Both the position numbers and the translations under genes were made by a program. From Promethearchaeota archaeon (lineage in GTDB: Archaea > Asgardarchaeota > Hermodarchaeia > Hermodarchaeales > Hermodarchaeaceae): a stretch of 32,000 bases of DNA. Positions 7,095 to 30,198 of the stretch are shown here, piece after piece (the stretch's first letter is position 1; every line of letters begins with the position of its first letter). The DNA lies in contig JBHLMI010000013.1 of NCBI GenBank assembly GCA_048938295.1, positions 27,804 through 59,803 of the forward strand, read 5' to 3'. Below the pieces are notes generated by a model that saw only the letters and a program-made list of their open reading frames with translations, had not been told where the DNA came from and made no database searches.

Positions 7095-7153
7095 GCAATT
7101 AATTATCCGGATCACGGTGGAAACGGAAGTATTAATTGCCCTTTTCTCTTCTT
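7095..7153 (+). terminator. Stem-loop plus pyrimidine tract after the ABC operon
   Basis: GCAATTAAT/ATTAATTGC inverted repeat 7095-7139 with an inner TCCG/CGGA stem, followed by CCTTTTCTCTTCTT. Confidence 0.5.
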
Positions 7154-7198
7154 GTTGCATAATGAGTTCAGCTAGCTTGAATAGGAGTCGATAGAACC

Positions 7199-7702: not shown

Positions 7703-7707
7703 AAAGA

Positions 7708-9945: not shown

Positions 9946-11186
9946 CGTTCTATCAGAGAACGGTCCAGGGATGGTACTGTTAGAAAGACTATGGGGAGGA
10001 GTGCCAGTGCAATCAGGGCGCCTATGAAATAGACTCCAGGAAGTGCCAAGACACCAAGTACAACTGCCATAATAAGAGGGCCTAATGTTTGCCCAAGTCG
10101 AAGAACAAGTCCGTTTAGTGACATGACCGCTGCACGGTTCTCCATTGGGGCTAGATTCACAAGGAGGTTTTGGGTCGTGGGTGTAGCCAAGCCCATGCCA
10201 ACACCAAATAGTCCAATTGGAATGAGAATTATCAGTAGATGGGGTGCGAAGGGAATAAGGAACAGACCCAAGGTCTGAAAGGGAAACGCTGCCATTAGCA
10301 AGCCCTTCATGGAGTACCTTCGAATCAGAACTCCAACTAAGAAGGCTGTAAAAGCTGAAGTAACAGATATGAACGACACAACAAGCCCAGCAATGAATGA
10401 GTCGACAGAAAACATAGTAATTAGGAGAAAGGGTAAGTAGGTGATAATAGCTCCATAAAGCATGATGAAAATTGCTGTACTTACAATCAACAAACCAGCG
10501 ATCTGTCGATCTTGGAGGATATGCCAGATTTGCCCGAAATATTCACGTCGGTTTAGGAGTTGTTTAGATTTAGGCACATTAAGCCAGATGAGTACTGCCA
10601 AACCAATAGGGAGAGCTAGAAGCGGGAGATAGAAAGGGAAATACCAGGCGAAAAGCGCCAAGAACCCACCGACTGTGGGATAAATGGCTGTGGCAATGCT
10701 TTGGACGCTTACATTGTACCCCATCACTTGTGTGCGTTGCCGGTGGTGATACAAATCACCAATGATTGTGATATTGAGTGAACCAAGAGCGGCTGCACCA
10801 GCTCCTTGAAAGACCCGAAGAATCAGCAGCATGAAAAAGGGCGAGGTCCCCAAAAGAAGCCCTAAGGGTTCAGAAAACGCACAGCCAAATCCAGCGACCC
10901 CGAACAATAACAGAGAGGGAACCAATACTTGTTTACGACCATACCGATCTGCAGCTACCCCCAAAAAGGGAGTAAGGATGACTCCCGGAAGTGTGAATAC
11001 GATGACAAGAAGGCTGATCATGCTGGGCGGAACACTGAGAGCAATACTCATCGAAGGAAATGCCGGAGTTATACTTGCAACACCCATGACTGCAATGAGG
11101 GTTGTGCCAAAAATGGCTAAAAGATTAGCATTTAATGGAGGCCTTTCACCCCCATTTTCCTGCTCACGTACCCCAGCGGGTTGCAT
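9942..11186 (-). CDS. MFS transporter (multidrug/DHA1-like)
   Basis: Motif [11 protein letters not shown], second repeat RRYSMK, about 12 TMs. The stop overlaps the mutase stop; ATG 11186 is preferred over TTG 11201. Confidence 0.88.
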
Positions 11187-11297
11187 AATGCGCCTCAACA
11201 CCTGACCTTCAATAAAAACGTTTGTAGAATACTAGTTCAGTGGAACAGAAGTCTTTTCAAGGTGCTACAGCTCAAAGAAGATGGAGATGAGTGTTTT

Positions 11298-11696
11298 TTG
11301 CGCATTGCTCACATCGGAATTGCAGTTAGAGATGCTGATATGGCTTTGAAATTATATCGAGAGGTTCTAGGATTGAAGCCTTCGTGTATCGAGACTGTCG
11401 AAAGCCAGAAGGTCAAAACAATTCACATTCCAGTTGGCGATTCCAGTATTGAGTTATTAGAATCGACGAGTCCTGATGGTGTCGTGGCACAGTTCATCGA
11501 AAAGCGCGGAGAAGGCATCCACCATATCGCTATTGAAGTGGATGACATCGAGGCCACACTAGCTAATATGAAAGCTCAGGGAATTCAGTTAATCGATGAA
11601 ACACCCCGCATGGGTGCAGGAAATATGCGTATCGCTTTCATTCATCCACGAAGCACCAACGGTGTGCTGCTAGAATTGTGCCAACCGACCAAATAG
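11298..11696 (+). CDS. mce: Methylmalonyl-CoA epimerase (VOC family)
   Basis: IAHIGIAV, IELLE, GEGIHHIAIEV, AFIHPRSTNGVLLEL. TTG start after GGAGATGA. Confidence 0.92.
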   Translation: MRIAHIGIAVRDADMALKLYREVLGLKPSCIETVESQKVKTIHIPVGDSSIELLESTSPDGVVAQFIEKRGEGIHHIAIEVDDIEATLANMKAQGIQLIDETPRMGAGNMRIAFIHPRSTNGVLLELCQPTK

Positions 11697-11711
11697 CTTG
11701 CTGTGAATTGT

Positions 11712-12548
11712 ATGGCTAAACCCCCTATCCCCCTTGAACCCCGAAACGACCCTTTCCAACACGCGCTGAGCAACACTTCAAAACTGGTATTTAGGCGATT
11801 ACTCCATTTTTCATCGCTTCCCTCAACCAACGCATACCTGAAACCGCTAGCTAAGGTAGGTGAACTCGAAGGATTAATTGTGCTAGCGGATGAACAATCA
11901 GAAGGGATTGGACGGTTAGATCATACGTGGTATTCACCACCTGGTGGATTGTATTTTTCCCTACTCGTTCGACCAATGAGCATTAGAGCTGATGAAACCC
12001 CGTTGATTACGTTGACAGTGGGTATAGCGGTCGCTAAGGTTCTTCAGACTGCATTAGGGCTAGAAGCCGTGTTGAAATGGCCAAATGATGTATTGTTAAC
12101 TAATCAGAAGGTGGCAGGGATTCTCGTCGAGTCAGCCTTTATTGGCAACGATATCGAATACGCTGTGATTGGTATCGGAATCAATGCCAATTCCACAATT
12201 GGAGATTTCCCGGATTTGCTCCAATCTAAGGTTACAACCCTTCAGGAGCAGCTTAATCGCGCTGTGAATTTGCCCAGACTATTCGGGTATTTAGTAGGTC
12301 AACTGGAATTTTGGTATGTCAAGCTGCGAGATAAAGGTTTCAAAGCTATCAAACCACATTATCAACGCCTCTGTAGAACCCTTGGGAAGACTGTGACTAT
12401 TGATGTGGGGGACAGGCAAGTCACTGGAAAGACAGAGAAAATAGATTCGGATGGAAGCCTCATCCTTCAGACGGCACAAGGACGCATGAGTATTCGGAGT
12501 GGGAACGTGGTTTCCTCAATCTCTGAAGCCACTAGTGAAGAACCTTAA
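11712..12548 (+). CDS. birA: Biotin-protein ligase (class I, no HTH)
   Basis: STN, QSEGIGRLDHTWYSP, KWPND, KVAGILVE, GIGIN, C-terminal SH3-like DSDGSLILQ. Confidence 0.92.
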   Translation: MAKPPIPLEPRNDPFQHALSNTSKLVFRRLLHFSSLPSTNAYLKPLAKVGELEGLIVLADEQSEGIGRLDHTWYSPPGGLYFSLLVRPMSIRADETPLITLTVGIAVAKVLQTALGLEAVLKWPNDVLLTNQKVAGILVESAFIGNDIEYAVIGIGINANSTIGDFPDLLQSKVTTLQEQLNRAVNLPRLFGYLVGQLEFWYVKLRDKGFKAIKPHYQRLCRTLGKTVTIDVGDRQVTGKTEKIDSDGSLILQTAQGRMSIRSGNVVSSISEATSEEP

Positions 12549-13058: not shown

Positions 13059-13436
13059 TTAACTCGTCTTCCAGAGCATGTGAATATTGCAATATTCACG
13101 TGCCACGTCAGGCTTGCCTTTCATCGGGAAATCAGCTTCTGGTTTCATGCCAGGTTCCAAGAATTGGCGCATAATCGTGCCATCCTTGACCACCTGGATC
13201 CATTCAATCCAGTGGGCATCGACCATTGGGTGGGGGGTGGAACCAACAACGACATGAAGGCCGTCTTTGGTTTCTTCCACAACTGGGACATGTTTCTCGG
13301 TCTTGAAGTCGGCTGTTCGTTCCTCCATAAGTGTCATGGGTGCACCACAGCAGACTAGCGTTCCAGTACCAGTGTGCAGTACTTCGACGATGTTTCCACA
13401 CGTTTCACATTTATAGATTTGGAGTAGTTCAGTCAT
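13059..13436 (-). CDS. dfx: Desulfoferrodoxin (two-iron superoxide reductase)
   Basis: Desulforedoxin domain YKCETCG...LVCCG, EKHVP, HPMVDAHWIEWI, CNIHMLW. Confidence 0.95.
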   Translation of the reverse strand: MTELLQIYKCETCGNIVEVLHTGTGTLVCCGAPMTLMEERTADFKTEKHVPVVEETKDGLHVVVGSTPHPMVDAHWIEWIQVVKDGTIMRQFLEPGMKPEADFPMKGKPDVAREYCNIHMLWKTS

Positions 13437-15069: not shown

Positions 15070-16467
15070 ATGTCATATCGTGAGTATGAGGAAACAGGCG
15101 GTGGACGTGGCCCTATTTTGGGCCTTGTGATTGGCATTGTTCTGTTGTATGCTTTTAGTTTCTACAATCTCTTCTACATCGCGTCACCATTTCTTCCGAT
15201 TATTATTTCGATTATTCTCGTTGCATTTCCATGGTTTGTCACCTTTTTGCCGGCGATTTCAGGATTTTTCTTATTTTTAATCTTACTGGGAATGGGTCTT
15301 GCATATCTGGTTCTCCAGTTGATGAAACGCGCAGCGGCAGGAACATTGCGAGTACTTTGGCTCTTGCAGGCTGTGTTCATGTTCGTAATTGGAATAGCGA
15401 TGGTCCTCTTCTTGGGGCCTTTTGGTTTGCTTGGGCTCATCTTTCCGGTCTTTGGGCTGATTCAACTATGGGTCTGGTTTCGGCGACGACAGAAGATTGA
15501 ACGCGCAGGTAAACTGGCGGAATTTACCGCGCAGTTATTACTTGAGGAAAAGCAGATGTTCATTGTACCCCTGGTTACCGCGGTGTTCAGTCTACTCACG
15601 GGCATTCTCATGATGGCAACCTTTGGAGCCATGTACACCTGGCTCCCCCTCATTGGCATCCCCCCAGAGTCTCTCATCTTTTGGGCGTTATCCATCCTTG
15701 TTCAAATTCCCTATTTGTTCGTCTACTTCTCCATTTTCTACATCTTTGATGGAATCAATGTGTCAATCGCTCATACTTGGTATCGAAATCAGGATCCGAA
15801 CCTTGCAGGGGCCTCTCGCGAGGTTCGTGGGGTTATGGGCACAATTATACGATTCGCTGCAGTTCGTACAGCGGTTTCGGTGGCGCAAAGCACGGCTCAA
15901 AGTGGAGGGCGACGCCAAGGAGGGGTATTTGCAATCCTCGGAGCCATTGCTAGTCGGATTATTGGAGCAGTTTTTTACTTTTTGACTTATTTCACTTTAC
16001 CAGCGATTATCATTGAGAAACGGGGTCTGGTGGCCTCAGTTAAACGTTCCGCCCGGTTGACCTGGCAGTGGCTTGTGGATGTTTACATTGCTGAGACCGG
16101 CGTCTCATCGGTGTTCAGTTTATTTGGTGCTCTATTGACGCTGGGTTTCATTGCGATTGGATTTCTCTTCGGTTACCTCATGGGCATCTTCATTACTAGT
16201 GACATCATCTTGTCTCTGATTATTGGAATCATCTTCACCATAGTGTTTCTTATCTTCTCGGCGATTCCCAGCTATTTCATCTTCCGCCCCTTGAACACGG
16301 CATACCGTACTTTCATGTTCTCCTATGCCCTCGATGAAGAGAGCGGATTCTCACTTCCAAGTAGGCTACCGAAAGCCTATCGGGACACAATTGAAGAAGC
16401 TCAGGCTGAATGGGAAGCCTCTGGCAAGAAACGCCAAATAAAAGAGCCACCTCTCGAATGGGACTAG
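15070..16467 (+). CDS. Multi-pass membrane protein (DUF6159-like; resembles the choline-transporter-like SLC44/Pns1 family)
   Basis: About 10 TMs; RQKIERAGKLAEFTAQLLLEEKQMFIVP and YFTLPAIIIEKRGLVASVKRSARL segments. The family call is from memory of motifs. Confidence 0.6.
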   Translation: MSYREYEETGGGRGPILGLVIGIVLLYAFSFYNLFYIASPFLPIIISIILVAFPWFVTFLPAISGFFLFLILLGMGLAYLVLQLMKRAAAGTLRVLWLLQAVFMFVIGIAMVLFLGPFGLLGLIFPVFGLIQLWVWFRRRQKIERAGKLAEFTAQLLLEEKQMFIVPLVTAVFSLLTGILMMATFGAMYTWLPLIGIPPESLIFWALSILVQIPYLFVYFSIFYIFDGINVSIAHTWYRNQDPNLAGASREVRGVMGTIIRFAAVRTAVSVAQSTAQSGGRRQGGVFAILGAIASRIIGAVFYFLTYFTLPAIIIEKRGLVASVKRSARLTWQWLVDVYIAETGVSSVFSLFGALLTLGFIAIGFLFGYLMGIFITSDIILSLIIGIIFTIVFLIFSAIPSYFIFRPLNTAYRTFMFSYALDEESGFSLPSRLPKAYRDTIEEAQAEWEASGKKRQIKEPPLEWD

Positions 16468-16512: not shown

Positions 16513-17097
16513 CTAGTAGGTTTCACAGAGGACTTGGAAGAATTTACGTGCATGGAAACAGGAAGGACATTGTTCTGGGGGTTCGTCACCCGTGTGCAAA
16601 TATCCACACTCGCGACATATCCAAATGGTGGGTTTCTTTTTCTTGAAGACGGTGTTAGCTTCGACTTCTTTGAGGAGGGCGGTATAGCGGTCAGCGTGAT
16701 GGGCTTCTACTTGGGCAATGGCGCGTACTTGTTTTGCGATGGCTTTGTAGCCTTCCTTTTCAGCGGTATTAGCAATCTCGGGGTACATTTGGGTGTGCTC
16801 GTAGGTTTCACCTTCGATAGCAGCTTTGAGGTTATCAGCGGTTGTACCGACTTTGAGGGGAGCAAGAGCGTCGACGGTGATTTCGGGCAGGGGTTTGCCA
16901 GTTTGTTTCATGACGGATTGGGCGGCGCGCCAAAAATTCTTGGCATGGACCCGTTCATTTTCAGCAGTAACATTGAAGATTTCAGAGATCTGTTCATAAC
17001 CTTCGTTTCGCGCGATGTTGGCGTAGATATTGTATCTATTACGGGCTTGGCTTTCGCCGATGAAAGCTTGGACCAGTCCGGTTAACGTTTTAGACAT
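16513..17097 (-). CDS. rbr: Rubrerythrin
   Basis: Diiron motifs GESQARNRY, ENERVHA, ETYEHTQMYP, EAHHADRY, plus C-terminal CRECG...CPSC. Confidence 0.95.
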   Translation of the reverse strand: MSKTLTGLVQAFIGESQARNRYNIYANIARNEGYEQISEIFNVTAENERVHAKNFWRAAQSVMKQTGKPLPEITVDALAPLKVGTTADNLKAAIEGETYEHTQMYPEIANTAEKEGYKAIAKQVRAIAQVEAHHADRYTALLKEVEANTVFKKKKPTIWICRECGYLHTGDEPPEQCPSCFHARKFFQVLCETY

Positions 17098-17243
17098 GGG
17101 GTTCTAACCTCGCGCTGTATCAGCCAGATTCAGGTTAAGAATCTTTGTGATTTCTAAGGATAGGGATTTTAGGCAACCGGTTGGGTTTAAGAGGAGTGGC
17201 TGCTGTAGAGGAACCATCCTGTCTGAAATGGAGAGTAACTGGT

Positions 17244-18803
17244 ATGCCATCTGATTTGATGAACAAGAAGATGAAAGAACTCCAAAAACACCTGAAAAAA
17301 GCTAAGCTTGGTGGCGGAAAGGAGCGAATTGAAAAGCAACACAAAGCTGGGAAAATGACGGCACGGGAAAGAATTGACCGGCTTTTAGACCCAGGCAGTT
17401 TCATGGAGTTTGATGCGCTGGTAGAGCACCGGTGCACGGATTTCAAAATGGATAAACAAAAGATTCCCGGCGATGGGGTGGTAACTGGGTATGGTACCAT
17501 TGACGGTCGGTTGGTGTTTGTGTTTAGTCAGGATTTCACGGTTTTTGGTGGAGCCCTAGGTGAGATGTTTGGGGAAAAAGTAACTAAAATCATGGACCTA
17601 GCCCTGGAAGCAGGAGCACCAGTAATTGGATTGAATGATTCCGGAGGGGCACGGATTCAGGAAGGTGTGGCTAGCCTTGGAGCGTATGGAGAGATCTTTT
17701 ATCGCAACGTAATTGCATCGGGTGTGATTCCCCAAATCAGCGCCATTATGGGCCCCTGTGCTGGAGGGGCGGTGTATAGCCCAGCAGTCACCGATTTTAC
17801 GTTCATGGTGAAGAATACGAGCCGCATGTTTATTACCGGTCCCAACGTGATCAAGTCGGTCACTGGAGAAGTCATCTCGCTTGAAGAACTCGGAGGTGCT
17901 ATGGCACATAACATGAAAAGTGGTGTCGCGCAGTTTGCAGCGGAGAATGAGGAACACTGCCTGCAACTCATCCAAGAACTCCTATCTTATTTACCCTCGA
18001 ATAATGTCGAAGACCCCCCATCAGTTGAGCCCACTGATGATGCACGAAGGACGGATCCTACATTGAACGAGTTGCTCCCTGATGATACAACGACACCGTA
18101 TAATATGAAACAAGCGATTTTGAGCGTAGCTGACAATCATCAGTTTCTAGAAGTGCATGAACTTTTTGCTCAGAACATGGTGGTAGGATTTATCCGATTG
18201 AATGGCCACCCAGTGGGCGTCGTCGCCAACCAGCCCAATTATCTCGCAGGAACCCTGGACATTAACGCGTCAGATAAATGTGCCCGGTTCGTCCGGTTTT
18301 GTGACGCGTTCAATATTCCGGTACTCACCTTCATGGATGTCCCTGGGTTCCTCCCAGGAGTCGACCAGGAACATCGTGGTATCATTCGCCACGGTGCAAA
18401 AATCCTCTTTGCATACGCTGAAGCCACTGTGCCAAAAGTCACGGTTATCACTCGAAAAGCCATTGGTGGAGCCTATGTGGTGTTAGGATCAAAGCATTTA
18501 CGCGCGGACGTGGTATATGCCTGGCCAACGACGGAAATGGCAGTCATGGGACCGGAAGGTGCTGCAAACATTATCTTCCGACGAGAAATCGACAAGGCAA
18601 AGGATCCAGAGGTTACTCGGGCGGAACGCATCACAGCATACCGAGAAAGGTTTGCGAATCCCTATTCTGGGGCAGTTCGTGGTTTCATTGATGAAGTTAT
18701 AGAACCTGCGATCACTCGGCCTCGCGTGATTGCAGCATTCGAAATGTTGCGTACCAAGCGACAAGCATTACCGAAAAAGAAACATGGTAATTGCCCGCTT
18801 TAG
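17244..18803 (+). CDS. Acyl-CoA carboxyltransferase subunit (PccB/MmdA/transcarboxylase 12S family)
   Basis: GKMTARERI, PGDGVVTG, NDSGGARIQEG, GPCAGGAVYSP, DVPGFLPG, GGAYVVLGSK, KKHGNCPL. ATG 17244 follows GGAGAG. Confidence 0.94.
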   Translation: MPSDLMNKKMKELQKHLKKAKLGGGKERIEKQHKAGKMTARERIDRLLDPGSFMEFDALVEHRCTDFKMDKQKIPGDGVVTGYGTIDGRLVFVFSQDFTVFGGALGEMFGEKVTKIMDLALEAGAPVIGLNDSGGARIQEGVASLGAYGEIFYRNVIASGVIPQISAIMGPCAGGAVYSPAVTDFTFMVKNTSRMFITGPNVIKSVTGEVISLEELGGAMAHNMKSGVAQFAAENEEHCLQLIQELLSYLPSNNVEDPPSVEPTDDARRTDPTLNELLPDDTTTPYNMKQAILSVADNHQFLEVHELFAQNMVVGFIRLNGHPVGVVANQPNYLAGTLDINASDKCARFVRFCDAFNIPVLTFMDVPGFLPGVDQEHRGIIRHGAKILFAYAEATVPKVTVITRKAIGGAYVVLGSKHLRADVVYAWPTTEMAVMGPEGAANIIFRREIDKAKDPEVTRAERITAYRERFANPYSGAVRGFIDEVIEPAITRPRVIAAFEMLRTKRQALPKKKHGNCPL

Positions 18804-18831
18804 GAAGGGTGGACAGACAGAAAACTAAAAA

Positions 18832-18859
18832 CGAGGAGGAGTAAATACCTCCTACCTCG
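18832..18859 (+). promoter_or_regulatory. Strong intergenic hairpin between the 12S-like and 5S-like genes
   Basis: CGAGG-AGGAG-taaatac-CTCCT-a-CCTCG. Confidence 0.45.
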
Positions 18860-18889
18860 CCATGACGTTGTTAATGAGGTGTATTGTGC

Positions 18890-20401
18890 GTGTCGTCCAC
18901 TTCTAGCAAGCCGATTAAATTTACAGACACCACGTTCCGTGATGCACATCAATCCTTGTTGGCTACACGAATGCGAACCGATGATATGCTGCCTATCGCT
19001 GAGAAAATGGACCAGGTCGGGTTTAACTCGATGGAAGTCTGGGGTGGAGCCACCTTTGATGCGCCTCTCCGATTTCTGAAGGAGAATCCGTGGGAACGGC
19101 TTCGACAACTCCGAGCCACGATTAAGAAGACAAAGCTTCAGATGCTTCTACGGGGTCAAAACATCGTGGGATACCGCCATTATCCTGACGATACGGTCCG
19201 CAAATTCGTCGAACTCGCAGCCACAAATGGAATCGATATCTTCCGGGTCTTCGACGCACTAAATGATCCCAGGAACATGCAAACCGCCTTAAAAGCCATC
19301 CATAAGGCAGGAGCTCATGCACAGTTGAGTTTTAGCTACACAATCAGTCCGGTTCATAATGTTGAAACCTTCGTTGAGCAGGCTAAGCATCTGGAAGAAA
19401 TGGGCGCTGATTCAATATGCATTAAAGACATGGCTGGTCTCCTTAGCCCCTTTATCGCCCGAGAACTGGTTATCCGCCTGAAAGAGGACATTAGTGTCCC
19501 CATTCAATTGCACTCACATTACACTTCTGGGATGGCAAGTATGACCTATCTTGAGGCCATTAAAGCTGGTGTCGATATTGTTGATACAGCAATCTCATCA
19601 TTAGCACAATCAACATCTCAGCCACCGCTAGAAACTATGGTAGCGGTCCTTGAAGGTACTCCGTGGGATTCGAAACTCGATCTAGAACTCTTATCGGAAA
19701 TCGCCGCATACATACATGATGTGCGAGAGAAATATGAAGCCTATGAATGCGGTATGGTGGGAGTGGATACAAACGTCTTGCAATTCCAAGTTCCTGGCGG
19801 AATGATGTCGAATCTGGTCAACCAATTACGTGAACAAAACGCCTTAGACCGCCTTCAAGATGTATTGGACGAAGTACCCATCGTCCGCAAAGAAATGGGA
19901 TACCCTCCACTCGTGACCCCCTCCAGTCAGATTGTCGGCACACAGGCAACACTCAACGTGTTACTTGGAGAACGTTATAAGACAATTCCTGAGGAGGTCA
20001 AACAATACGTCCGTGGGTATTATGGTCGCCCCCCGGCACCCATTGATCCAACAACCCAGAAGCGTGTCATCGGTGACGAAGAGCCAATTACCTGCCGCCC
20101 AGCTGATCTATTAGAACCGGCTATTCCCCAGGCACGAGCCGAACTCAAGGGCATCACTTCAAATATCGAAGACATCATCACTTACATTCTTTTTCCACAA
20201 CCTGCTCTGGAATTCTTCGAGTATCGCAAAGACCAAGAAGTCTTGAATAATCTTACTCCTGAATTGCAGGCCGCGATCACTGCCGCACTACTTGAAATGC
20301 AGCCTGAACCCTTGAAAATGCCGGCAATCCGTCGTTCCAACACAAATGGATCGAATCCCTGGGTGCTTGCTGGACGCCGAGAAGCCATGGGTTATGATTA
20401 A
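18890..20401 (+). CDS. Pyruvate/oxaloacetate carboxyltransferase (transcarboxylase 5S/OadA/PycB family) with no biotinyl domain and an epsilon/PccX-like C-terminal tail
   Basis: RDAHQSLLATR, WGGATFD, MLLRGQN, IKDMAG, HSH, PGGM, LVTPSSQIVG; tail LQAAITAALLEM...NPWVLAGRREAMG. GTG 18890 follows GAGGTG. Confidence 0.92.
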   Translation: MSSTSSKPIKFTDTTFRDAHQSLLATRMRTDDMLPIAEKMDQVGFNSMEVWGGATFDAPLRFLKENPWERLRQLRATIKKTKLQMLLRGQNIVGYRHYPDDTVRKFVELAATNGIDIFRVFDALNDPRNMQTALKAIHKAGAHAQLSFSYTISPVHNVETFVEQAKHLEEMGADSICIKDMAGLLSPFIARELVIRLKEDISVPIQLHSHYTSGMASMTYLEAIKAGVDIVDTAISSLAQSTSQPPLETMVAVLEGTPWDSKLDLELLSEIAAYIHDVREKYEAYECGMVGVDTNVLQFQVPGGMMSNLVNQLREQNALDRLQDVLDEVPIVRKEMGYPPLVTPSSQIVGTQATLNVLLGERYKTIPEEVKQYVRGYYGRPPAPIDPTTQKRVIGDEEPITCRPADLLEPAIPQARAELKGITSNIEDIITYILFPQPALEFFEYRKDQEVLNNLTPELQAAITAALLEMQPEPLKMPAIRRSNTNGSNPWVLAGRREAMGYD

Positions 20402-20426
20402 AGAAAATGCCATGGAGAAGCCCTAA

Positions 20427-21008
20427 GTGACTCGAAAATATAAACTCACAATCAACAACAAAACGATCAACATTGAAGTTGATGGACCTACCAACGGGAT
20501 CCTCTCCATCACCATCGGCGAATCCACCTTCCCTGTCCAAGTGACGGACACCGATTCAGATTCAGGAAAGTATAAGGTCACTGTCGGCGACAGCAAGCAT
20601 ACGCTCCAATTGACACCTCAGTCTAATGCTCGCGGATATTCCGTAAAAGTGGATAAAGACACCTACACCGCTCAACTAATACCGCTTACCCATACCACGA
20701 CTCGCCCAATCTTGTCTCCAGCCGTTTCCGCTGCACCTGCAGTTACTATGTCCTCTGCAAGAGTACTGAGTGCTGTGGCCCAAGAACCGACCGAGCCTGG
20801 CACAGTAACCGCCCCGTTGCCAGGACGTGTTCTGGAAGTTCGCGTAATAAAAGGCGCATCTATCAAGGCCGGTGATGTTCTATTAGTCCTAGAAGCCATG
20901 AAGATGGCCAACGAAATACGGGCCCCACAGGATGGTACGGTGAAAGCAATTCACGTCAAAGCTGGAACCACAGTGGAAAAAGGGCAACCCATGCTGAGTA
21001 TCACCTAG
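20427..21008 (+). CDS. Biotin carboxyl carrier protein (1.3S/MmdC-like) with extended N-terminus
   Basis: VTAPLPG, LEAMKM biotinylation motif, Ala/Pro-rich linker, four N-terminal hairpin-like repeats. Confidence 0.93.
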   Translation: MTRKYKLTINNKTINIEVDGPTNGILSITIGESTFPVQVTDTDSDSGKYKVTVGDSKHTLQLTPQSNARGYSVKVDKDTYTAQLIPLTHTTTRPILSPAVSAAPAVTMSSARVLSAVAQEPTEPGTVTAPLPGRVLEVRVIKGASIKAGDVLLVLEAMKMANEIRAPQDGTVKAIHVKAGTTVEKGQPMLSIT

Positions 21009-21243: not shown

Positions 21244-21389
21244 GCCGCAGGTGGGGCCCTTTTCCTTTTCACTCAACAACCTTCCACGAGCTACCGAATA
21301 ATAGCTATTAGGCAAGATTGTAAAGTGCCAAAACCATTAAAGCAACTGCACCCTAACTGAACAAGCGAATCATGGGATGGCGAAGCCTA

Positions 21390-23066
21390 ATGGTTACGAA
21401 AGAGAAACAATCAGTATCGCAAACAAAACGTGACTGGGAAAACAATACCTTAAAAGAGACTCTTGATAAATCTCCCGAACGGCGTGAACGGTTTATCACT
21501 ACATCGAGTAGACCAATCGCTCGAATATACACTCCAATGGACATTGCAGGCTTCAATTATGATGAGCACCTAGGATTCCCTGGTCAATACCCGTATACCC
21601 GTGGCGTCTATCCCACGATGTACCGTGGTCGATTATGGACAATGCGGATGTTTTCGGGGTTCGGTACTGCTGAACAGACAAACACCCGGTTCCGATATCT
21701 TTTGGAACAGGGACAAACCGGACTCAGTGTCGCATTTCACCTCCCAACTATCCAGGGATACGACTCTGATGACCCCATGTCCAAAGGAGAAATCGGTGTT
21801 TGTGGTGTTGCTGTCGATTCGCTAGCCGATATGGAGATTCTCTTCTCACATATTCCTCTGGACAAAGTAACAACCTCGATGACCATCAATGCCCCTGCAG
21901 CAGTTCTCCTTTGTTTATACATCGCGGCAGCAGAAAAACAAGGCATTTCTTCGACCCAAATAGGCGGTACCATCCAAAATGACATCCTGAAAGAGTACCA
22001 AGCTCAAAAGACCTGGATATTTCCCCCAGACCCATCCATGCGCATTATCACAGATATTCTCCAGTTTTGTACGAAAAAAGTGCCACGCTGGAACACCATC
22101 AGCATCAGCGGGTATCATATTCGCGAAGCAGGGGCAACTGCTGTGCAAGAAGTCGCCTTTACCCTCGCGAATGGTCTCGCGTACGTCCAGGCAGGGGTTG
22201 ATGCAGGTTTGAAAGTGGATGATTTTGCCCCTCGACTTTCCTTCTTCTTTGATAGTCATCTTGATTTGTTCGAAGAAATCGCGAAATTCCGAGTTGCCCG
22301 ACGGATCTGGGCCCGAGAAATGCGAGACCGATTTAGGGCTAAGAATCCACGGTCCTATTTGCTACGATTTCATACACAGACGGCAGGCGTCAGCCTTACG
22401 GCACAACAGCCAGAAAATAACATTGTCCGAACCACCATTGAAGCCTTAGCAGCGATTCTAGGGGGCACTCAATCACTTCACACCAATTCCATGGATGAAG
22501 CGTGGGCACTCCCAACGGAGAAGGCAGCAACCATTGCCCTGCGCACGCAACAGATACTTGCGCATGAAAGTGGTGTTGCGAATACCATCGATCCCCTCGG
22601 TGGTTCATATTTCATTGAAGCTTTAACCAACGAAATGGAAGAGGAGACCTACAAGTACTTCGATCGGATTGAAAAGCTTGGAGGTGTGGTAGAAGCCATC
22701 AAGAAGGGATTTTTCCAACGCGAAATCTCTGACTCCGCTTTTCGATACCAACGTGAATTTGAAGAAAAGGAGCGGATCATCGTCGGCGTCAATGAGTACA
22801 TTACCGATGATCAGTTGGAAATTCCCGTCCTCAAGATTGACCCCGAAGTGGAACGAGCCCAGCTAGCAAGGCTGCAGAAGACACGGAAATCGCGGAACAA
22901 CCAGAAAGTCAAGCAACTCCTAATCCAATTACAGCGTGCGGCAGAGGGAACTGACAATCTTCTGCCCCATATCCTTGCGGCCGTTCGCGAATACGCCACT
23001 GTGGGGGAAATATGTAACGCACTGCGAGACGTTTATGGTGAATATCAAGAACCTATCATATTCTAA
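21390..23066 (+). CDS. Acyl-CoA mutase large subunit, isobutyryl-CoA mutase signature
   Basis: WTMRMFSGF (Phe) and [14 protein letters not shown] (Gln); otherwise the same motifs as 8272-9945. Confidence 0.9.
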
Positions 23067-23095: not shown

Positions 23096-23494
23096 TTGAC
23101 AGAAACTGAAAAAATTCGGGTGTTGATTGCTAAACCAGGATTAGACGGACATGACCGTGGTGCTAAGGTTGTGGCACGAGCCTTACGTGATGCCGGTTTT
23201 GAGGTCATCTACACGGGGTTACGCCAAACACCAGAACAAATTGCAGAAACCGCTCTGCAAGAGGATGTCGATGTTGTCGGCCTAAGCATTCTTTCAGGAG
23301 CCCATATGCGGCTATTTCCAGAAATAATGCAGCTCCTCAAAGAGCGAGAGATGGCCGATGTACTTGTTATTGCTGGTGGTATCATTCCTGAAGATGATTT
23401 CGAACCCTTGAGGAAACTCGGTGTTAAAGCGATTTTCGGGCCAGGGACACCAACTGGTGAAATCGTCGAATTCATTCGAAAACACACCAAATAA
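23096..23494 (+). CDS. Acyl-CoA mutase small subunit (cobalamin-binding domain)
   Basis: [11 protein letters not shown] (DxHxxG), [21 protein letters not shown]. Confidence 0.95.
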
Positions 23495-23511
23495 TCAGCG
23501 GAGTGGTCTGT

Positions 23512-24477
23512 ATGACTCCGGATACGACAGAATTGGTCAAACAGCTGCTAAAGGGTAATCGTCGAGCAGCAGCACGACTCATGACTCTCACCGAATCGTT
23601 GTCGCCGGAAGCCCATGCAGCAATCAAGCAGCTTTACCCGCACACTGGGAAAGCTCATATCATTGGAATTACCGGTCCGCCTGGTTCAGGGAAAAGCACC
23701 CTTGTGGACAAGCTCATTGAGCAGTATCGCTCCCAAAACTTAACAGTGGGAGTGGTTGCCGTTGATCCCAGTAGCCCATTTACAGGTGGCGCTCTGCTTG
23801 GTGACCGCATCCGAATGAACCGTTTTGCTAACGACCATGATGTCTTCATCCGGAGCATGGGATCCCGAGGTCATCTTGGCGGTTTAGCCTGGGCTACCAT
23901 AGATGTGGTCCACATTTTGGATGCCTTGGGCAAAGATATCATTATAGTTGAGACAGTTGGTGCCGGTCAAGCGGAAGTTGATATCGTTCAGCTAGCGGAA
24001 ACTGTTGTCTTACTCTCCGTACCTGGTTTAGGCGATGATATCCAAACCATCAAAGCGGGAATAATGGAAATCGGCAATATTTTCGCCATTAATAAAGCAG
24101 ACCTCGATGGAGCTGATCGCCGTTATGTCGAACTCCAATCTGCCCTCAATTTAGGGCAAGAAGCTGACGGGTGGGAACCACCCATCCTTAAAGTCATTGC
24201 AACAACCGGTGAAGGCATCGAAAGCCTTGTGAAAGCCATCAAAGATCATCATGAATACCTTGTCGAAAGTGGGGAGATTGCTAAAAACCGAGAAAAGCGA
24301 TGCTGCGCCCAACTTGAAACAATATTAGAACACAGTTTTATCAGAAAATTACTGATGGAGCCTGATGAACGAGACCTCTTTGAAAAACTGGTCGCGGAAG
24401 TAAATCAACGAAAAACCGACCCATACACCGCTGCGGAACGACTTATTCTTCACCTAATAAAATCGCCGAAAAAATGA
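23512..24477 (+). CDS. meaB: MeaB/ArgK GTPase chaperone of B12 mutases
   Basis: ITGPPGSGKST, DPSSPFTGGALLGDRIRM, VETVGAGQAE, GDDIQTIKAGIME, NKAD. Confidence 0.95.
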   Translation: MTPDTTELVKQLLKGNRRAAARLMTLTESLSPEAHAAIKQLYPHTGKAHIIGITGPPGSGKSTLVDKLIEQYRSQNLTVGVVAVDPSSPFTGGALLGDRIRMNRFANDHDVFIRSMGSRGHLGGLAWATIDVVHILDALGKDIIIVETVGAGQAEVDIVQLAETVVLLSVPGLGDDIQTIKAGIMEIGNIFAINKADLDGADRRYVELQSALNLGQEADGWEPPILKVIATTGEGIESLVKAIKDHHEYLVESGEIAKNREKRCCAQLETILEHSFIRKLLMEPDERDLFEKLVAEVNQRKTDPYTAAERLILHLIKSPKK

Positions 24478-24488: not shown

Positions 24489-25376
24489 TTATGGTTTCCG
24501 ACTATGTCCCGTCTCAAGAGGTGTTCCCAACCCAACGGTTGGGGTTCCACCACGAATTTGATAAGGGACCTTCAAATAGGTCGTAACTTCATCCGGTGCG
24601 GTCGTTTTTAGAATCTGCACGAATTTAGATGGCTGCTTCAACCCGGGCACATCACCGTAGCCCCATCGTAAGACTTGGTCCACCATGCGTTCACAAGCTG
24701 TATGGACTTCAGGAACTGTTCCTCGCCATCCCATGAAGAGAATCAGTGTATGTCCGAACTTACGCATGAGGTTAATCAGACGTCGTAAATAATCTAGCGC
24801 GGATTGGGGGCCCACGCCATCAATAAAATCATCCACATACGCCATTACCATACGGATAGTACCCTTCCCATGTAGAGAAGAGGTGATTTTACTGATCGCG
24901 GCAGGTAAACCATCGATAGAATGGATTTCATCCGGTTTACGGGGTGAAACCAGCAGATTTGGGTTTCCACCCATGCTCTTTATTCGTTCTTGGTATGACG
25001 TTCTAACTAATTCCCGTTCCGGGTCGCCAAAACCACGATAAGTGAACATATCCACCAAATGGAACCGATTTACATTACTCGTCTCTAGAAACACCTTGAA
25101 GGCGTTAGGCAATTTCCGTTCACACCATAACGCGATAGCCACTGGGTCCGCATAAGTGGTCACTAAAAGAAGTGTTTCCATATCCCGAACCTCGTTGGTT
25201 AACCACTCGATGGTCAAGCTGGTGGGATCGGTAAAGGTCTGGTTCTGTACGTACATAATGGTTGAGGTTCCAGACATTACGCCAAAATATTGGTCAAAGC
25301 TCTTGTTCCCCGTATATATACGGTGTCGGTCTTCTATGCCATCCAAGACAATTCTTGAAGCAGGCCGTTCATTCAT
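24489..25376 (-). CDS. KaiC/RecA-fold protein with a degenerate Walker A (probably an inactive ATPase)
   Basis: IYTGNKSFDQYFG-VMSGTSTIMYV matches the KaiC/RadA N-terminus, but the P-loop is replaced by QNQTFTDPT; Walker-B-like MVMAYVDD; ends with VDQVLRW...VQILK. Confidence 0.65.
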   Translation of the reverse strand: MNERPASRIVLDGIEDRHRIYTGNKSFDQYFGVMSGTSTIMYVQNQTFTDPTSLTIEWLTNEVRDMETLLLVTTYADPVAIALWCERKLPNAFKVFLETSNVNRFHLVDMFTYRGFGDPERELVRTSYQERIKSMGGNPNLLVSPRKPDEIHSIDGLPAAISKITSSLHGKGTIRMVMAYVDDFIDGVGPQSALDYLRRLINLMRKFGHTLILFMGWRGTVPEVHTACERMVDQVLRWGYGDVPGLKQPSKFVQILKTTAPDEVTTYLKVPYQIRGGTPTVGLGTPLETGHSRKP

Positions 25377-25570
25377 CGAAACACATCTCCCACCATGAAT
25401 ATACAATAGCTAGTAGGAGGCAGGCATTTAATGGGTTTCCCTCCGGTTTGGCGCCCTGTTTTTTTCATCGCGATTTCTGTAATCTTTACGGAGAAGAACT
25501 TTTAAGCAGAGCAGTTTCGTTTAAACGCCACTCAAGACGCCTAATACACTGAACTATGGGAGCAATCCAT

Positions 25571-26368
25571 ATGAAAATCATCGTCCCAATCAAACAGGTT
25601 CCCGAAATCGCTGAGGTTAAAATAGACCCGGAAACGAAAACCCTTGTTCGTGCTGGAGTTCCCTCGATTCTCAACCCCTTTGATGAATTCGCCGTTGAAG
25701 AAGCAGTTCGCATCAAAGAACAACTCGGTGAAGGTGAAGTCGTTATCATTACCATGGGTCCTCCGCAAGCAGAAGAAGCTCTGAAAAAGTGCCTCGCGAT
25801 GGGCGGAGACCGTGCCATCCACCTCTCGGATCGTGCTTTTGCAGGCGCAGATACTTGGGCCACGGCTTTTACCATTGCCCAAGCCATCAAAGCCGAAGCC
25901 CCTTATGATCTCATTATCTGTGGCAAACAAGCCATTGATGGTGATACGGCCCAAGTTGGTCCAGAAATCGCTGAAATTCTGGGTATTCCTCAAGTCACTT
26001 ATGCTGTGAACGTTGAACTCGCAGAGAGTAAAAAGCGCATCAAAGTGAAACGAGAAACGGATGAAGGATTTGAAGTGGTGGAATGCCGCTTACCTGCACT
26101 CCTCACAGCGACTAAAGGGCTTAACGAACCCCGCCTACCAAGCCTAATGGCCATCATGAGAGCCAGCAAGAAGGAAATCAGACTCGTTACAGCTGAAGTC
26201 CTTGGTGGAGATCAAAACCAGTATGGGCTCCCAGGTTCGCCCACCCAAGTGGTGGAGGTATTCACACCTGAGCAACGCACCGGCGGTATCAAAATCGATG
26301 GCACCGAAGATCCTGAAGGTGCTGCAAAACAACTTGTTGAGTGGTTACTGAAAAAGGGGATAATTTAG
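25571..26368 (+). CDS. etfB: Electron transfer flavoprotein beta subunit
   Basis: IKQVP, ILNPFDEFAVEEA, TMGPPQA, FAGADTWAT, GKQAIDGDTAQVGP, GLPGSPTQV. Confidence 0.95.
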   Translation: MKIIVPIKQVPEIAEVKIDPETKTLVRAGVPSILNPFDEFAVEEAVRIKEQLGEGEVVIITMGPPQAEEALKKCLAMGGDRAIHLSDRAFAGADTWATAFTIAQAIKAEAPYDLIICGKQAIDGDTAQVGPEIAEILGIPQVTYAVNVELAESKKRIKVKRETDEGFEVVECRLPALLTATKGLNEPRLPSLMAIMRASKKEIRLVTAEVLGGDQNQYGLPGSPTQVVEVFTPEQRTGGIKIDGTEDPEGAAKQLVEWLLKKGII

Positions 26369-26384
26369 GGTAGGTTGGTTTATC

Positions 26385-27578
26385 ATGCTAAACGTTAACA
26401 AAGAGGAATGCACGGGCTGTGGTTTGTGTGTGAAAGTCTGTCCCTTTGATGCCATGCACCTTGTCAACGAGAAAGCGGAGGCTGATGAAAAATGCACCCT
26501 CTGCGGTGCCTGCGTCAAAGTCTGCCCTGTTGACGCAATCTCCATTGAACGCAAACGAGTAGATCCCTCCAAGTTCACCGATTACAAAGGGGTGTGGGTG
26601 TGGGCTGAACAAATCAACGGTGAACTTCGTAATGTCGTTTTGGAACTGTTGGGGAAAGGACGAGAACTTGCTGACAAACTCGGTGAACCGCTCAGCGCAG
26701 TTCTCTTGGGACATAACGTCGGAAAACTTCCAGAAATCCTCATTCAACATGGTGCTGATGTTGTCTATGTAAACGATCAGGAGATCCTCGCCCAATACAC
26801 CACCGAAGCCTATGCAGATGTTATCGCCGCCCTTATCGTCACCGAAAAACCCAACATCATCTTATACGGAGCTACTGCCAACGGACGAGACCTCGGACCC
26901 CGAATCGCCGCACGCTTAATCCTCGGACTAACCGCTGACTGCACCGGGCTGGACATCGACGACCGACGGCAACTCGTCCAAACCCGTCCTGCCTTCGGTG
27001 GCAACATCATGGCCTCCATTCTAAGCCCTTATACTCGACCCCAAATGGCGACGGTCCGACCTAACGTCTTCAAAGTCCCTGAACCTGACGCCTCCCAGAC
27101 AGGTGGAACCAAGAATGTAGATATCAAAGTGAACAAGGCGGCGGTGCGCACCAAAATCGTGGACACCATTGTCGAAATTGAGGAAGGCGAGCTCAAAGTT
27201 GACGAAGCCGAAAGGGTGGTCTCCTGCGGACGTGGTATCAAAGACCCCCAAAATATCGAAGTTGTCGCTGAACTAGCGGACCAACTCAACGCTGCTCTTG
27301 GCGGCTCCCGTCCCATTGTCGACCAAGGATGGATGAAACACCATCAACAGGTTGGCCAATCTGGCCGAACCATCGCACCAAAGCTCTACATTGCCTGTGG
27401 GATCAGTGGCGCAATCCAACATCTCGTCGGCATGCGAACCAGCGACACCATCGTCGCCGTCAACAGCGACCCCGACGCCCCCATCTTCACTGTTGCTGAC
27501 TACGGAATTGTTGGCGATCTATTCAAAATCGTTCCTGCCCTTGTGAAGGAAATCAAACGGGTAAAGGCACAGAAGTGA
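26385..27578 (+). CDS. etfA: Electron transfer flavoprotein alpha subunit with N-terminal 2x[4Fe-4S] ferredoxin domain (CarE-like)
   Basis: CTGCGLCVKVCP and CTLCGACVKVCP; GLTADCT, TRPAFGG, QVGQSG, GISGAIQH. Confidence 0.95.
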   Translation: MLNVNKEECTGCGLCVKVCPFDAMHLVNEKAEADEKCTLCGACVKVCPVDAISIERKRVDPSKFTDYKGVWVWAEQINGELRNVVLELLGKGRELADKLGEPLSAVLLGHNVGKLPEILIQHGADVVYVNDQEILAQYTTEAYADVIAALIVTEKPNIILYGATANGRDLGPRIAARLILGLTADCTGLDIDDRRQLVQTRPAFGGNIMASILSPYTRPQMATVRPNVFKVPEPDASQTGGTKNVDIKVNKAAVRTKIVDTIVEIEEGELKVDEAERVVSCGRGIKDPQNIEVVAELADQLNAALGGSRPIVDQGWMKHHQQVGQSGRTIAPKLYIACGISGAIQHLVGMRTSDTIVAVNSDPDAPIFTVADYGIVGDLFKIVPALVKEIKRVKAQK

Positions 27579-30148: not shown

Positions 30149-30198
30149 ATCTTTGCCACCTTAAGTGTAATTTACCTGTTGAGCTTTTTGAAGGTTCA

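Follow-up and report, generated by a model that had tools for sequence, protein, structure and literature searches.

Three consecutive co-oriented genes of an Asgard archaeon raise the question of whether they form a transcarboxylase comparable to that of Propionibacterium freudenreichii subsp. shermanii (hereafter P. shermanii) or rather belong to biotin-dependent decarboxylases or ATP-dependent carboxylases. They lie in a stretch of 32,000 nucleotides (the window) from a 2.5-Mb MAG with 91.6% completeness and 4.3% contamination. A preliminary description of this DNA had proposed a 12S-5S-1.3S triad and a Wood-Werkman-like pathway, and we followed up both proposals across Asgard genomes.

The three-gene cluster and its neighborhood

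The triad and its accessory genes are encoded on the forward strand. The first gene of the triad (17244–18803) encodes a 12S-type acyl-CoA carboxyltransferase (Pfam Carboxyl_trans, 662 bits); its open frame begins at 17181, but translation probably starts from the ATG at 17244, which gives 519 aa as in relatives. It is followed after 80 bases by a 5S-type pyruvate/oxaloacetate carboxyltransferase (18884–20401; likely start GTG at 18890, 503 aa) and after another 25 bases by a biotin carrier of 193 aa (20427–21008; Biotin_lipoyl, 70 bits) with the biotinyl lysine of its EAMKM motif at residue 159 (codon 20901–20903). Profile searches find HMGL-like and PYC_OADA domains but no biotinyl domain in the 5S-type protein, which bears out the preliminary description of a carboxyltransferase without a biotin domain next to a stand-alone carrier. 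The 5S-type subunit retains its metal ligands, i.e., the Asp in RDAHQS, the Lys in KDMAG and the HxH pair. Carboxyl_trans, PYC_OADA and biotinyl domains each have a single match in the MAG, namely these three genes, so that the two carboxyltransferases have to share one carrier.

The accessory genes named in the preliminary description were each located by a profile match. Upstream of the triad, the window encodes an ATP:corrinoid adenosyltransferase CobO/BtuR (7699–8250; CobA_CobO_BtuR, 222 bits) that is syntenic in the related contig L001, a methylmalonyl-CoA-mutase-type large subunit (8272–9945; MM_CoA_mutase, 774 bits), a methylmalonyl-CoA epimerase (11181–11696; TIGR03081 equivalog, 154.3 bits against a cut-off of 115, with the family match starting at open-frame residue 41) and the biotin-protein ligase BirA (11703–12548; BPL_LplA_LipB and BPL_C; TIGR00121, 191.6 against a cut-off of 83), the latter two each with one match in the whole genome. 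Downstream follow a second acyl-CoA mutase large subunit (21372–23066; MM_CoA_mutase, 753 bits), a B12-binding small mutase subunit (23096–23494; TIGR00640, 189.6 bits against a cut-off of 57) that is the only one in the assembly (single tblastn match), and the G-protein chaperone of the mutase, MeaB (23503–24477; TIGR00750, 364.6 bits against a cut-off of 241). The two mutase large subunits are 65% identical to each other. The upstream one (motifs MRMYSGF and YVARGTY) has Tyr and Arg at what we take, from the MCM/ICM literature, to be the positions of P. shermanii Tyr89 and Arg207, and the downstream one (motifs MRMFSGF and YQAQKTW) has Phe and Gln there and is presumably isobutyryl-CoA-mutase-like. 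The window also holds a gene for a 465-aa membrane protein upstream of the triad (15070–16467) that is without a match in related loci, and contig L001 carries an RDD-family membrane protein gene, absent from the window, between its 12S and 5S genes.

Missing partners and distribution among Asgard archaea

The lack of a biotin carboxylase and of an OadB/MmdB subunit that had been pointed out for the window extends to the entire assembly, since profile searches of the 91.6%-complete MAG found neither PF02785 nor PF03977 (OAD_beta). A tblastn search of this genome with an archaeal biotin carboxylase gave nothing below E = 2, and one with an Asgard-binned OadB found no match. Neither partner was detected in 18 genomes of the same family (f1). 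Across a sample of 151 Asgard genomes from 27 families, the 5S gene is limited to 4 families (f1, 16/18 genomes; f6, 25/26; f12, 3/3; f17, 1/1), to the exclusion of biotin carboxylase: the latter is absent from all genomes of f1 (0/18), f6 (0/26) and f12 (0/3) but was found in 12/14, 4/4, 4/5 and 6/7 genomes of families without a 5S gene. The 12S-type genes of other Asgard families pair with an adjoining biotin carboxylase and without 5S. OadB was detected only in genome G041 of the sample, and the 47 genomes of f1, f6 and f12 have no PF03977 homologue. Two of the three f12 genomes are closed single contigs, so the absence of biotin carboxylase and OadB is not an assembly gap.

The linkage of the triad to BirA, an epimerase and a mutase is conserved in four Asgard families, and the cluster is likewise retained within the genus of our MAG. 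The order epimerase-BirA-12S-5S-carrier with a nearby mutase is kept in f12 and f17 at only about 60% protein identity (with the epimerase syntenic in both), and BirA adjoins or sits near the 12S gene in f12, f6 and f17. Given this linkage and the lineage-wide absence of alternative partners, the triad is best read as a soluble, ATP-independent biotin-dependent transcarboxylase that probably works like methylmalonyl-CoA:pyruvate carboxytransferase (EC 2.1.3.1). The candidate put forward in the preliminary description thus gains support from absent partners, conserved synteny and a single shared carrier.

Subunit affinities and alternative functions

Judged from their sequences, the subunit types are by themselves not diagnostic, because 5S and 12S homologues elsewhere adjoin biotin carboxylase. 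Also against the transcarboxylase reading, both subunits appear closer to parts of other enzymes than to their Propionibacterium counterparts. The 12S-type protein matches the PCC beta subunits of T. maritima (1VRG, 716 bits) and S. coelicolor (PccB, 695 bits) better than P. shermanii 12S (1ON3, 595 bits), and the 5S-type protein matches PycB (5KS8, 538 bits) and OadA (2NX9, 530 bits) better than P. shermanii 5S (1RQB, 453 bits) and is missed by the NCBIfam 5S equivalog (563.6 against a cut-off of 827). The earlier notion of a Propionibacterium-type triad therefore holds for the same three components and not for the subunits as specific orthologues.

At the position of PccB Asp422, the 12S-type subunit carries Val412 (motif GGAYVVL in f1), while Asp is kept in the transcarboxylase-type families f6, f12 and f17 and in 103 of 120 homologues among the matches listed. 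This Asp-to-Val change, a new detail that by sequence comparison seems specific to the f1 lineage, suggests that acyl-CoA specificity may differ there; changes at Asp422 of S. coelicolor PccB reportedly relax specificity towards acetyl-CoA. It is conceivable, though rather unlikely, that the transcarboxylase of f1 has a different or broader acyl-CoA partner (e.g., malonyl-CoA/acetyl-CoA or ethylmalonyl-CoA/butyryl-CoA) so that propionate formation would not be its dedicated role, a reading that the isobutyryl-CoA-mutase-like gene directly downstream of the triad would suit. However, the same conserved cluster contains the Tyr/Arg mutase and an epimerase above its equivalog cut-off, the gene order is identical in families that keep the Asp, and we know of no established archaeal requirement for malonyl-CoA.

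The top NCBIfam names of the two carboxyltransferases, mmdA and oadA, would be in line with a pair of decarboxylases, with the 12S-type subunit and carrier acting on methylmalonyl-CoA and the 5S-type subunit and carrier on oxaloacetate. These would either use a membrane partner unrelated to OadB, for which the 465-aa protein and the RDD-family protein of contig L001 could be considered, or be soluble and without energy conservation. We regard this arrangement as improbable: both names score under their curated cut-offs (871 against 998.8 for TIGR01117 mmdA), neither membrane gene is conserved beside the triad, PF03977 was found in 0/47 genomes of f1, f6 and f12, and CO2 release from the carrier requires a carboxybiotin decarboxylase, of which we know none besides the beta subunit.

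The 5S-type protein ends in a tail (20240–20401) in which a linker joins an AAIxAA helix to a PWxLAGR motif. This tail is common to the 5S genes of four Asgard families and is also found in Chloroflexi homologues and in one homologue from Methanofastidiosia, the latter 67% identical and adjoining a biotin carboxylase and a carrier as a split pyruvate carboxylase. Ordinary ATP-dependent enzymes (propionyl-CoA carboxylase plus split pyruvate carboxylase) with a biotin carboxylase outside the bin or too diverged are very improbable for our incomplete MAG, even though these 5S and 12S types are found together with biotin carboxylase in Methanofastidiosia and in other Asgard families. That enzyme was found in none of 47 genomes of three families including the two single-contig ones, whereas the same search detected it in 13/14 control genomes and 39 other Asgard genomes, and it did not emerge from tblastn of our MAG either.

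Carrier architecture, proposed reaction and metabolic context

The carrier consists of an N-terminal eight-strand BT-like domain (residues 1–88; 20427–20690), a low-confidence linker and the biotinyl domain. Its AlphaFold2 model places the eight strands within residues 2–86 (pLDDT of about 80–88) as a barrel without central helix, and the full-length model resembles the BT+BCCP part of PCC/MCC alpha subunits (Foldseek E 2.7e-13, 192 aligned columns). This predicted PCC-like BT barrel is a new detail of the carrier; P. shermanii 1.3S has a short N-terminal segment instead. In propionyl-CoA carboxylase, the alpha subunit attaches to the beta hexamer through its BT domain, and the carrier barrel, probably together with the helical 5S tail, may likewise dock a 5S/carrier module on the 12S core. 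A complex prediction for 12S with the 5S tail and carrier N-domain weakly favors such an assembly with a score of 0.38 (best control 0.15), in a range (up to 0.60) that holds only 5 of the passing solved complexes yet all 4 passing mismatches. The mark used was passed by 51/78 solved complexes and 2/108 mismatched pairs, and the runs share at least 37% of contacts at a partner pLDDT of at least 91. Compared to PCC/MCC holoenzymes (3N6R, 7YBU, 6YBP, 8J78), whose beta subunit in PCC is a close homologue of the 12S-type subunit, the Asgard set has no biotin carboxylase domain or gene, and the 5S-type carboxyltransferase would replace the ATP-dependent half-reaction.

We infer the activity, substrate, direction and assembly of the transcarboxylase as follows. 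BirA would biotinylate the single carrier at Lys159. The 12S-type hexamer would move the carboxyl group from (S)-methylmalonyl-CoA to biotin with release of propionyl-CoA, and the swinging biotinyl domain would carry this group to the 5S-type subunit, at whose metal site pyruvate would be carboxylated to oxaloacetate in a reversible reaction. The most likely cellular role of the enzyme is to close a reductive route from succinate to propionate. Class I fumarase would turn malate into fumarate, which the TfrAB-type reductase would reduce to succinate. Succinyl-CoA synthetase would then form succinyl-CoA, and the Tyr/Arg mutase with MeaB would rearrange it to (R)-methylmalonyl-CoA. Epimerization to the (S)-form would be followed by conversion to propionyl-CoA, from which an ADP-forming acyl-CoA synthetase would yield propionate and ATP.

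The genome encodes a TfrAB-type fumarate reductase, fumarase, succinyl-CoA synthetase, malic enzyme and seven ACD-like (ADP-forming acyl-CoA synthetase) genes. Full-length TfrB is found in 40/46 5S-bearing genomes versus 14/105 others, counts that are not independent given that the genomes are related. Of the proposed Wood-Werkman-like pathway, genes for fumarase, TfrAB, succinyl-CoA synthetase, mutase and epimerase are present, but the malate dehydrogenase and succinate CoA-transferase of the Propionibacterium cycle were not found: Ldh_1-type malate dehydrogenase was detected in none of 48 transcarboxylase-type genomes, and neither an Ldh_2-type enzyme nor an AcetylCoA_hydro CoA-transferase was detected in our MAG. 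The cycle is thus only partly canonical here, and the lack of a malate dehydrogenase to use oxaloacetate counts against the transcarboxylase reading. Malic enzyme, succinyl-CoA synthetase and the ADP-forming acyl-CoA synthetases are likely substitutes for the missing enzymes.

Among known systems, the Na+-translocating oxaloacetate and methylmalonyl-CoA decarboxylases (OadABG, MmdABCD) and the split archaeal pyruvate carboxylase (PycA/PycB) use carboxyltransferases and carriers homologous to those of the triad, whose top NCBIfam names belong to these families, but their defining partners (beta pump subunit PF03977 and biotin carboxylase PF02785) were not found here. P. shermanii transcarboxylase (1ON3, 1RQB and 1DCZ; PMC2909200, PMC10604320) has the same three parts, including a TIM-barrel carboxyltransferase with carbamyl-Lys, Asp and two His as metal ligands, similarly goes without biotin carboxylase and membrane subunit, and shares the context of methylmalonyl-CoA mutase and epimerase. 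The transcarboxylase reading for Asgard archaea was already published independently by Imachi et al. in 2020 (PMC7015854), who, in the parts of their paper available to us, inferred a transcarboxylase and propionate fermentation from the same genes and named a transcarboxylase-associated biotin ligase and a transcarboxylase carrier. These parts are silent on the missing malate dehydrogenase, on the BT-like domain of the carrier and on the Asp-to-Val change. They treat the gene set for propionate fermentation as ancestral to Asgard archaea (PMC7015854), whereas the 5S gene in our 151-genome sample is confined to 4 of the 27 families.

The gene triad and the alternative partners not found

The triad consists of three adjacent and co-oriented genes on the plus strand that are separated by gaps of 80 and 25 bases. 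The first (17244-18803) encodes a 12S-type acyl-CoA carboxyltransferase with a Carboxyl_trans domain, 519 amino acids long when counted from an ATG as are its relatives, and the second (18884-20401) a 5S-type pyruvate carboxyltransferase composed of HMGL-like and PYC_OADA domains without a biotinyl domain. The third (20427-21008) encodes a stand-alone biotin carrier of 193 amino acids whose C-terminal 70 residues form a biotinyl domain with an EAMKM motif, the biotinyl lysine being residue 159 (codon 20901-20903). This domain make-up in Pfam and NCBIfam agrees with what the preliminary description had read from the sequence, and the accessory genes that it had listed were all found in the window, i.e., CobO, two mutase large subunits, an epimerase exceeding its equivalog cut-off, MeaB, and a BirA that sits in the cluster and exceeds the TIGR00121 cut-off, together with a B12-binding small subunit. 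The metal site of 5S subunits is formed by a carbamylated lysine, one aspartate, and two histidines (PMC10604320), and alignment to the Propionibacterium 5S structure 1RQB shows that these ligands are kept as the aspartate of RDAHQS, the lysine of KDMAG, and an HxH pair.

The window spans 27804-59803 of contig C3 in a metagenome-assembled genome (MAG) of 2.52 Mb in 66 contigs (91.6% complete, 4.3% contamination), and the nearest public proteins carry the labels Promethearchaeota, Thorarchaeota, or Hodarchaeota, which identifies the source as an Asgard archaeon. Scans of the window for tRNAs and Rfam families detected nothing, and a scan for promoters and terminators in the surroundings of the triad, which does not cover archaeal promoters, gave no more sites than shuffled sequence. 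No match to the triad or to the 5S gene alone was listed in RNA datasets; the DNA datasets with matches were metagenomes from sediments, possibly including the source sample in two cases.

The assembly contains exactly one Carboxyl_trans, one PYC_OADA, and one biotinyl-domain match, which are the triad itself, so that both carboxyltransferases must depend on the same carrier. Neither a biotin carboxylase (PF02785) nor the OadB/MmdB pump subunit (PF03977), both noted before as lacking from the window, has a match in the genome as a whole, in 18 genomes of the same family (f1), or in the Asgard families f6 and f12. The same searches were positive in control genomes expected to have these genes (13 of 14 for PF02785), and tblastn of the source genome with a Methanofastidiosia biotin carboxylase and an Asgard-binned OadB gave nothing better than E = 2. 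The absence of these genes is not provable in MAGs; in f12, however, two genomes consist of a single contig each, and a gap in the assembly does not account for the missing biotin carboxylase there.

Kinship and distribution of the subunits across Asgard archaea

We judged the kinship of the subunits from PDB bit scores and named database matches. The 12S-type protein scores higher with the PCC beta subunit of T. maritima (716 bits) than with Propionibacterium 12S (1ON3, 595 bits), and the 5S-type protein ranks PycB (5KS8, 538 bits) and OadA (2NX9, 530 bits) before Propionibacterium 5S (1RQB, 453 bits) and stays below the cut-off of the NCBIfam 5S equivalog NF008984 (563.6; cut-off 827). The nearest relatives of the 12S-type protein outside of Asgard archaea are found in Bathyarchaeia and Thermoplasmata at 67-70% identity, some of them named “methylmalonyl-CoA carboxyltransferase” by NCBI. 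A Bathyarchaeia homologue of the 12S-type protein (P0231) adjoins BirA with no 5S gene nearby and is uninformative for the transcarboxylase question. A 67% identical 5S homologue of Methanofastidiosia adjoins a biotin carboxylase and a carrier and is thus part of a split pyruvate carboxylase. Judging from these comparisons, the subunit types by themselves do not decide what kind of enzyme they form.

Three kinds of biotin-dependent enzymes come into question. With the transcarboxylase of Propionibacterium (EC 2.1.3.1), the triad shares the division into three separate parts, the 5S metal site, the biotinyl-lysine motif with its ligase, and that no biotin carboxylase or membrane decarboxylase subunit was found to work with it; unlike in a simple ortholog, the 12S and 5S subunits fall outside of this enzyme by the 5S equivalog cut-off and the PDB ranking. 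ATP-dependent biotin carboxylases (PCC/ACC and two-subunit PYC) include the PCC beta and PycB proteins that score highest with our subunits, but their PF02785 subunit or domain was not found here. Among the Na+-translocating decarboxylases (OAD, MMD, and GCD), OadA ranks high with the 5S-type protein, but the defining beta subunit (PF03977), which sits in the membrane, decarboxylates carboxybiotin, and acts as the pump, was not found, and the scores for both mmdA (871; cut-off 998.8) and oadA (717.6; cut-off 756.5) are below their cut-offs.

For comparison, one draw of 151 Asgard genomes was searched with four families, and the resulting counts describe three or four lineages of related genomes rather than 47 independent events. 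The 5S-type domain is confined to f1 (16/18 plus the source genome), f6 (25/26), f12 (3/3), and f17 (1/1). Biotin carboxylase is absent from the sampled genomes of f1 (0/18), f6 (0/26), and f12 (0/3) and common in families without 5S, such as f4 (12/14), f13 (4/4), f15 (4/5), and f21 (6/7). The 12S-type gene occurs in both groups and, in the latter, adjoins biotin carboxylase in what is the ordinary arrangement of an acyl-CoA carboxylase. Across Asgard families, we therefore add here that the 5S gene and biotin carboxylase are mutually exclusive. OadB was found only in G041, the f17 genome, a bin with 9% contamination that holds a copy of everything: its 12S-5S cluster, a biotin carboxylase accompanied by a carrier, and OadB each lie on a contig of their own (L021, L022, and L023), and this organism either has mixed systems or the bin is contaminated.

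Conservation of the triad in relatives, proposed earlier as a check, was observed at two depths. A related contig with proteins labelled Hodarchaeota by NCBI (L001; 5S 85% identical) has all genes of the cluster in unchanged order, i.e., HIT, CobO, the mutase with Tyr/Arg signature, an MFS gene, epimerase, BirA, desulfoferrodoxin, rubrerythrin, 12S, 5S, carrier, the mutase with Phe/Gln signature, small subunit, MeaB, and EtfBA. It differs from the window by a gene for an RDD-family membrane protein inserted between 12S and 5S (L001 9231-9821). At ca. 60% identity, f12 retains small subunit, mutase, epimerase, BirA, 12S, 5S, and carrier, f17 retains epimerase, BirA, 12S, and 5S, and f6 retains BirA, 12S, 5S, and carrier, showing that the link between the triad and enzymes of methylmalonyl-CoA metabolism is old and conserved. 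With the triad conserved and biotin carboxylase and OadB not found, the tests that we ran support the candidate archaeal transcarboxylase put forward in the preliminary description; this reading follows from the genes present and their neighbourhood rather than from orthology, and predicts ATP-independent carboxyl transfer from methylmalonyl-CoA to pyruvate.

Several further features of these loci were noted. On the related contig L015, a gap between 12S and 5S (6943-7829) has a size matching the RDD gene in the same place. Long open frames had suggested a fusion of 5S and carrier in some genomes of the same genus, which was rejected since tblastn shows separate genes with the spacing seen here. 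The genes for desulfoferrodoxin (13059-13436, minus strand) and rubrerythrin (16513-17097, minus strand) sit between BirA and 12S in the window, and their position is preserved in L001, L014, and L015, so that oxygen-stress genes are embedded in a B12/biotin cluster.

A transcarboxylase has already been proposed for the phylum by Imachi et al. 2020 (PMC7015854), whose Supplementary Figure 18 announces an Asgard transcarboxylase carrier tree in its title, and a paper on Hermodarchaeota lists methylmalonyl-CoA carboxyltransferase in every genome. Our analysis is thus confirmation and not discovery; beyond this, its value lies in a clearer view of the distribution across lineages and in some details of structure. 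No biochemical study or characterisation of an archaeal transcarboxylase was found in the searchable literature.

Substrate specificity and putative assembly of the complex

The acyl-CoA specificity of S. coelicolor PccB is controlled by Asp422, and the PccB structures ranking highest in our PDB search are D422 variants. All 12S sequences of f1 that we examined, from both genera, have valine at the corresponding position (residue 412 of the protein in the window; motif GGAYVVL). Aspartate occupies it in f6, f12, and f17, in most homologues from Bathyarchaeia and Thermoplasmata, and in 103 of the 120 homologues listed. This Asp-to-Val change of the 12S-type subunit, specific to the lineage, is another point that we add here. 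The mutase large subunit encoded directly downstream of the triad (21372-23066) has phenylalanine and glutamine at the positions of Tyr89 and Arg207 of methylmalonyl-CoA mutase, which is a signature of isobutyryl-CoA mutases. A second large subunit with Tyr/Arg (8272-9945) is encoded 7 kb upstream of the triad beside CobO; the two are 65% identical, and the assembly has one small subunit (23096-23494) and one MeaB for both. The context of epimerase and Tyr/Arg mutase favours methylmalonyl-CoA as the substrate of the 12S-type subunit, but the valine and the Phe/Gln mutase next door complicate this simple reading.

The carrier was modelled with AlphaFold2 on an input of 53 Asgard sequences (mean pLDDT 75.5). 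In this model, residues 2-86 contain eight strands, residues 89-122 are a disordered linker, the biotinyl domain follows, and there is no helix. Using Foldseek, the whole model (192 columns) aligns to the alpha subunits of PCC and MCC (7YBU, 6YBP, 3N6R, and 8J78; best E 2.7e-13) in their BT and BCCP part; the loose link between the two domains keeps the TM-score low. The predicted PCC-like BT fold of the carrier is a further point that we add here. In PCC, the BT domain docks the alpha subunit on the beta hexamer. The C-terminus of the 5S-type protein carries a conserved helix (AAIxAA), a linker, and a PWxLAGR motif that are kept in all four Asgard families. The same tail is present in Chloroflexi and in the Methanofastidiosia homologue adjoining biotin carboxylase, and it is therefore no marker of transcarboxylases but presumably a docking tail of wider use. 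We infer that the BT barrel of the carrier, joined in trans by the 5S helix, may dock on the 12S-type subunit. A complex prediction of 12S with the 5S tail and the N-terminal domain of the carrier lends weak support to this docking: its score of 0.38 (best control 0.15) lies in a range, up to 0.60, that contains only 5 of the passing solved complexes and all 4 passing mismatches, for a mark passed by 51/78 solved complexes and 2/108 mismatched pairs. The individual runs share at least 37% of contacts, and the pLDDT of the partner is at least 91.

The proposed succinate/propionate pathway

The preliminary description had further suggested an ATP-neutral succinate/propionate pathway of the Wood-Werkman kind, and the genes found support this for one part of the route. 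The succinate-to-propionate half is complete in gene content, and the Wood-Werkman set present comprises the Tyr/Arg mutase, small subunit, MeaB, CobO, epimerase, fumarate reductase, and fumarase. Contig C7 of the source genome encodes a soluble fumarate reductase of the TfrA/TfrB type (TfrB 501.5, cut-off 385; TfrA 691.7, just under 718) beside the alpha and beta genes of a class I fumarase. Full-length TfrB is found in 40/46 of the 5S-bearing genomes vs 14/105 of the others, counts that again come from related genomes. The thiol type of this reductase argues for the reductive, propionate-forming direction; Imachi et al. 2020 (PMC7015854) likewise remark that the genes for syntrophic degradation of propionate are complete in no Asgard archaeon. 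Two members of the canonical cycle were not detected, malate dehydrogenase and a PF02550 CoA-transferase. The latter (AcetylCoA_hydro type, the sole CoA-transferase family searched and our test for propionyl-CoA:succinate CoA-transferase) was not found in the source genome. Succinyl-CoA synthetase (beta and alpha subunits on contig C46) and seven ACD-like ORFs could substitute for it at no net ATP cost, and this half of the pathway would be ATP-neutral provided that the one ATP consumed by the synthetase is recovered through an ACD.

The step from oxaloacetate to malate has no canonical enzyme. Malate dehydrogenase of the Ldh_1 type (PF02866) was not found in f1 (0/18), f6 (0/26), f12 (0/3), and the source genome, a consistent lack that we add here, and neither an Ldh_2-type dehydrogenase (PF02615) nor aspartase or class II fumarase as another route from oxaloacetate to fumarate was found in the source genome. 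A malic enzyme of 453 amino acids encoded on contig C16 can be a source of malate from pyruvate, and one might speculate that it also handles oxaloacetate. Archaeal PEP carboxylase was not found in 13 f1 genomes, and for PEP carboxykinase there is only a weak PEPCK_ATP match (33 bits) in a 644-aa ORF.

A joint reading of all these observations is possible but in our view rather unlikely. It holds that three Asgard families have an enzyme of PCC-like build in which a 5S-type carboxyltransferase replaces the ATP-dependent biotin carboxylase; the carrier would keep the BT barrel of PCC alpha, the 5S tail would give the missing helix in trans, and the resulting module would dock on a PccB-like hexamer. 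The propionate cycle would run without malate dehydrogenase and with transcarboxylation as the main link of pyruvate and oxaloacetate, while the Asp-to-Val change of f1 would widen the acyl-CoA range and link the transcarboxylase to the isobutyryl-CoA-mutase-like protein encoded next to it.

No known organisms are more closely related to eukaryotes than Asgard archaea, whose energy metabolism has nearly all been deduced from genome sequences. With an ATP-free carboxyl shuttle, these slow-growing sediment fermenters could dump reducing equivalents as propionate with the carboxylation costing no ATP. The occurrence of 5S without biotin carboxylase versus biotin carboxylase without 5S would also be a clean marker to tell propionate-fermenting Asgard lineages from those that carboxylate propionyl-CoA at the expense of ATP.

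Other genes at these loci deserve mention. On contig C7, the adjacent TfrA-TfrB and class I fumarase genes (locus L010, 4943-9724 and neighbours) lie beside two proteins of 196 and 365 amino acids without family match, a Roadblock/LC7 protein, and FtsZ. The EtfB and EtfA genes in the window (25556-27578) are the sole Etf pair of the assembly and syntenic with the mutase genes; EtfA bears an N-terminal ferredoxin domain with two [4Fe-4S] clusters, and the best NCBIfam names for both are acryloyl-CoA reductase Etf subunits, with scores under the cut-offs. Between MeaB and EtfB, a 305-aa protein without Pfam or NCBIfam match (24489-25406, minus strand) is kept in the same position in three related contigs at 75-84% identity. 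Further downstream (28308-31467, minus strand), three co-oriented genes encode a kynureninase-like protein, an Fe-S protein with weak similarity to reductive dehalogenases, and a SAM methyltransferase.
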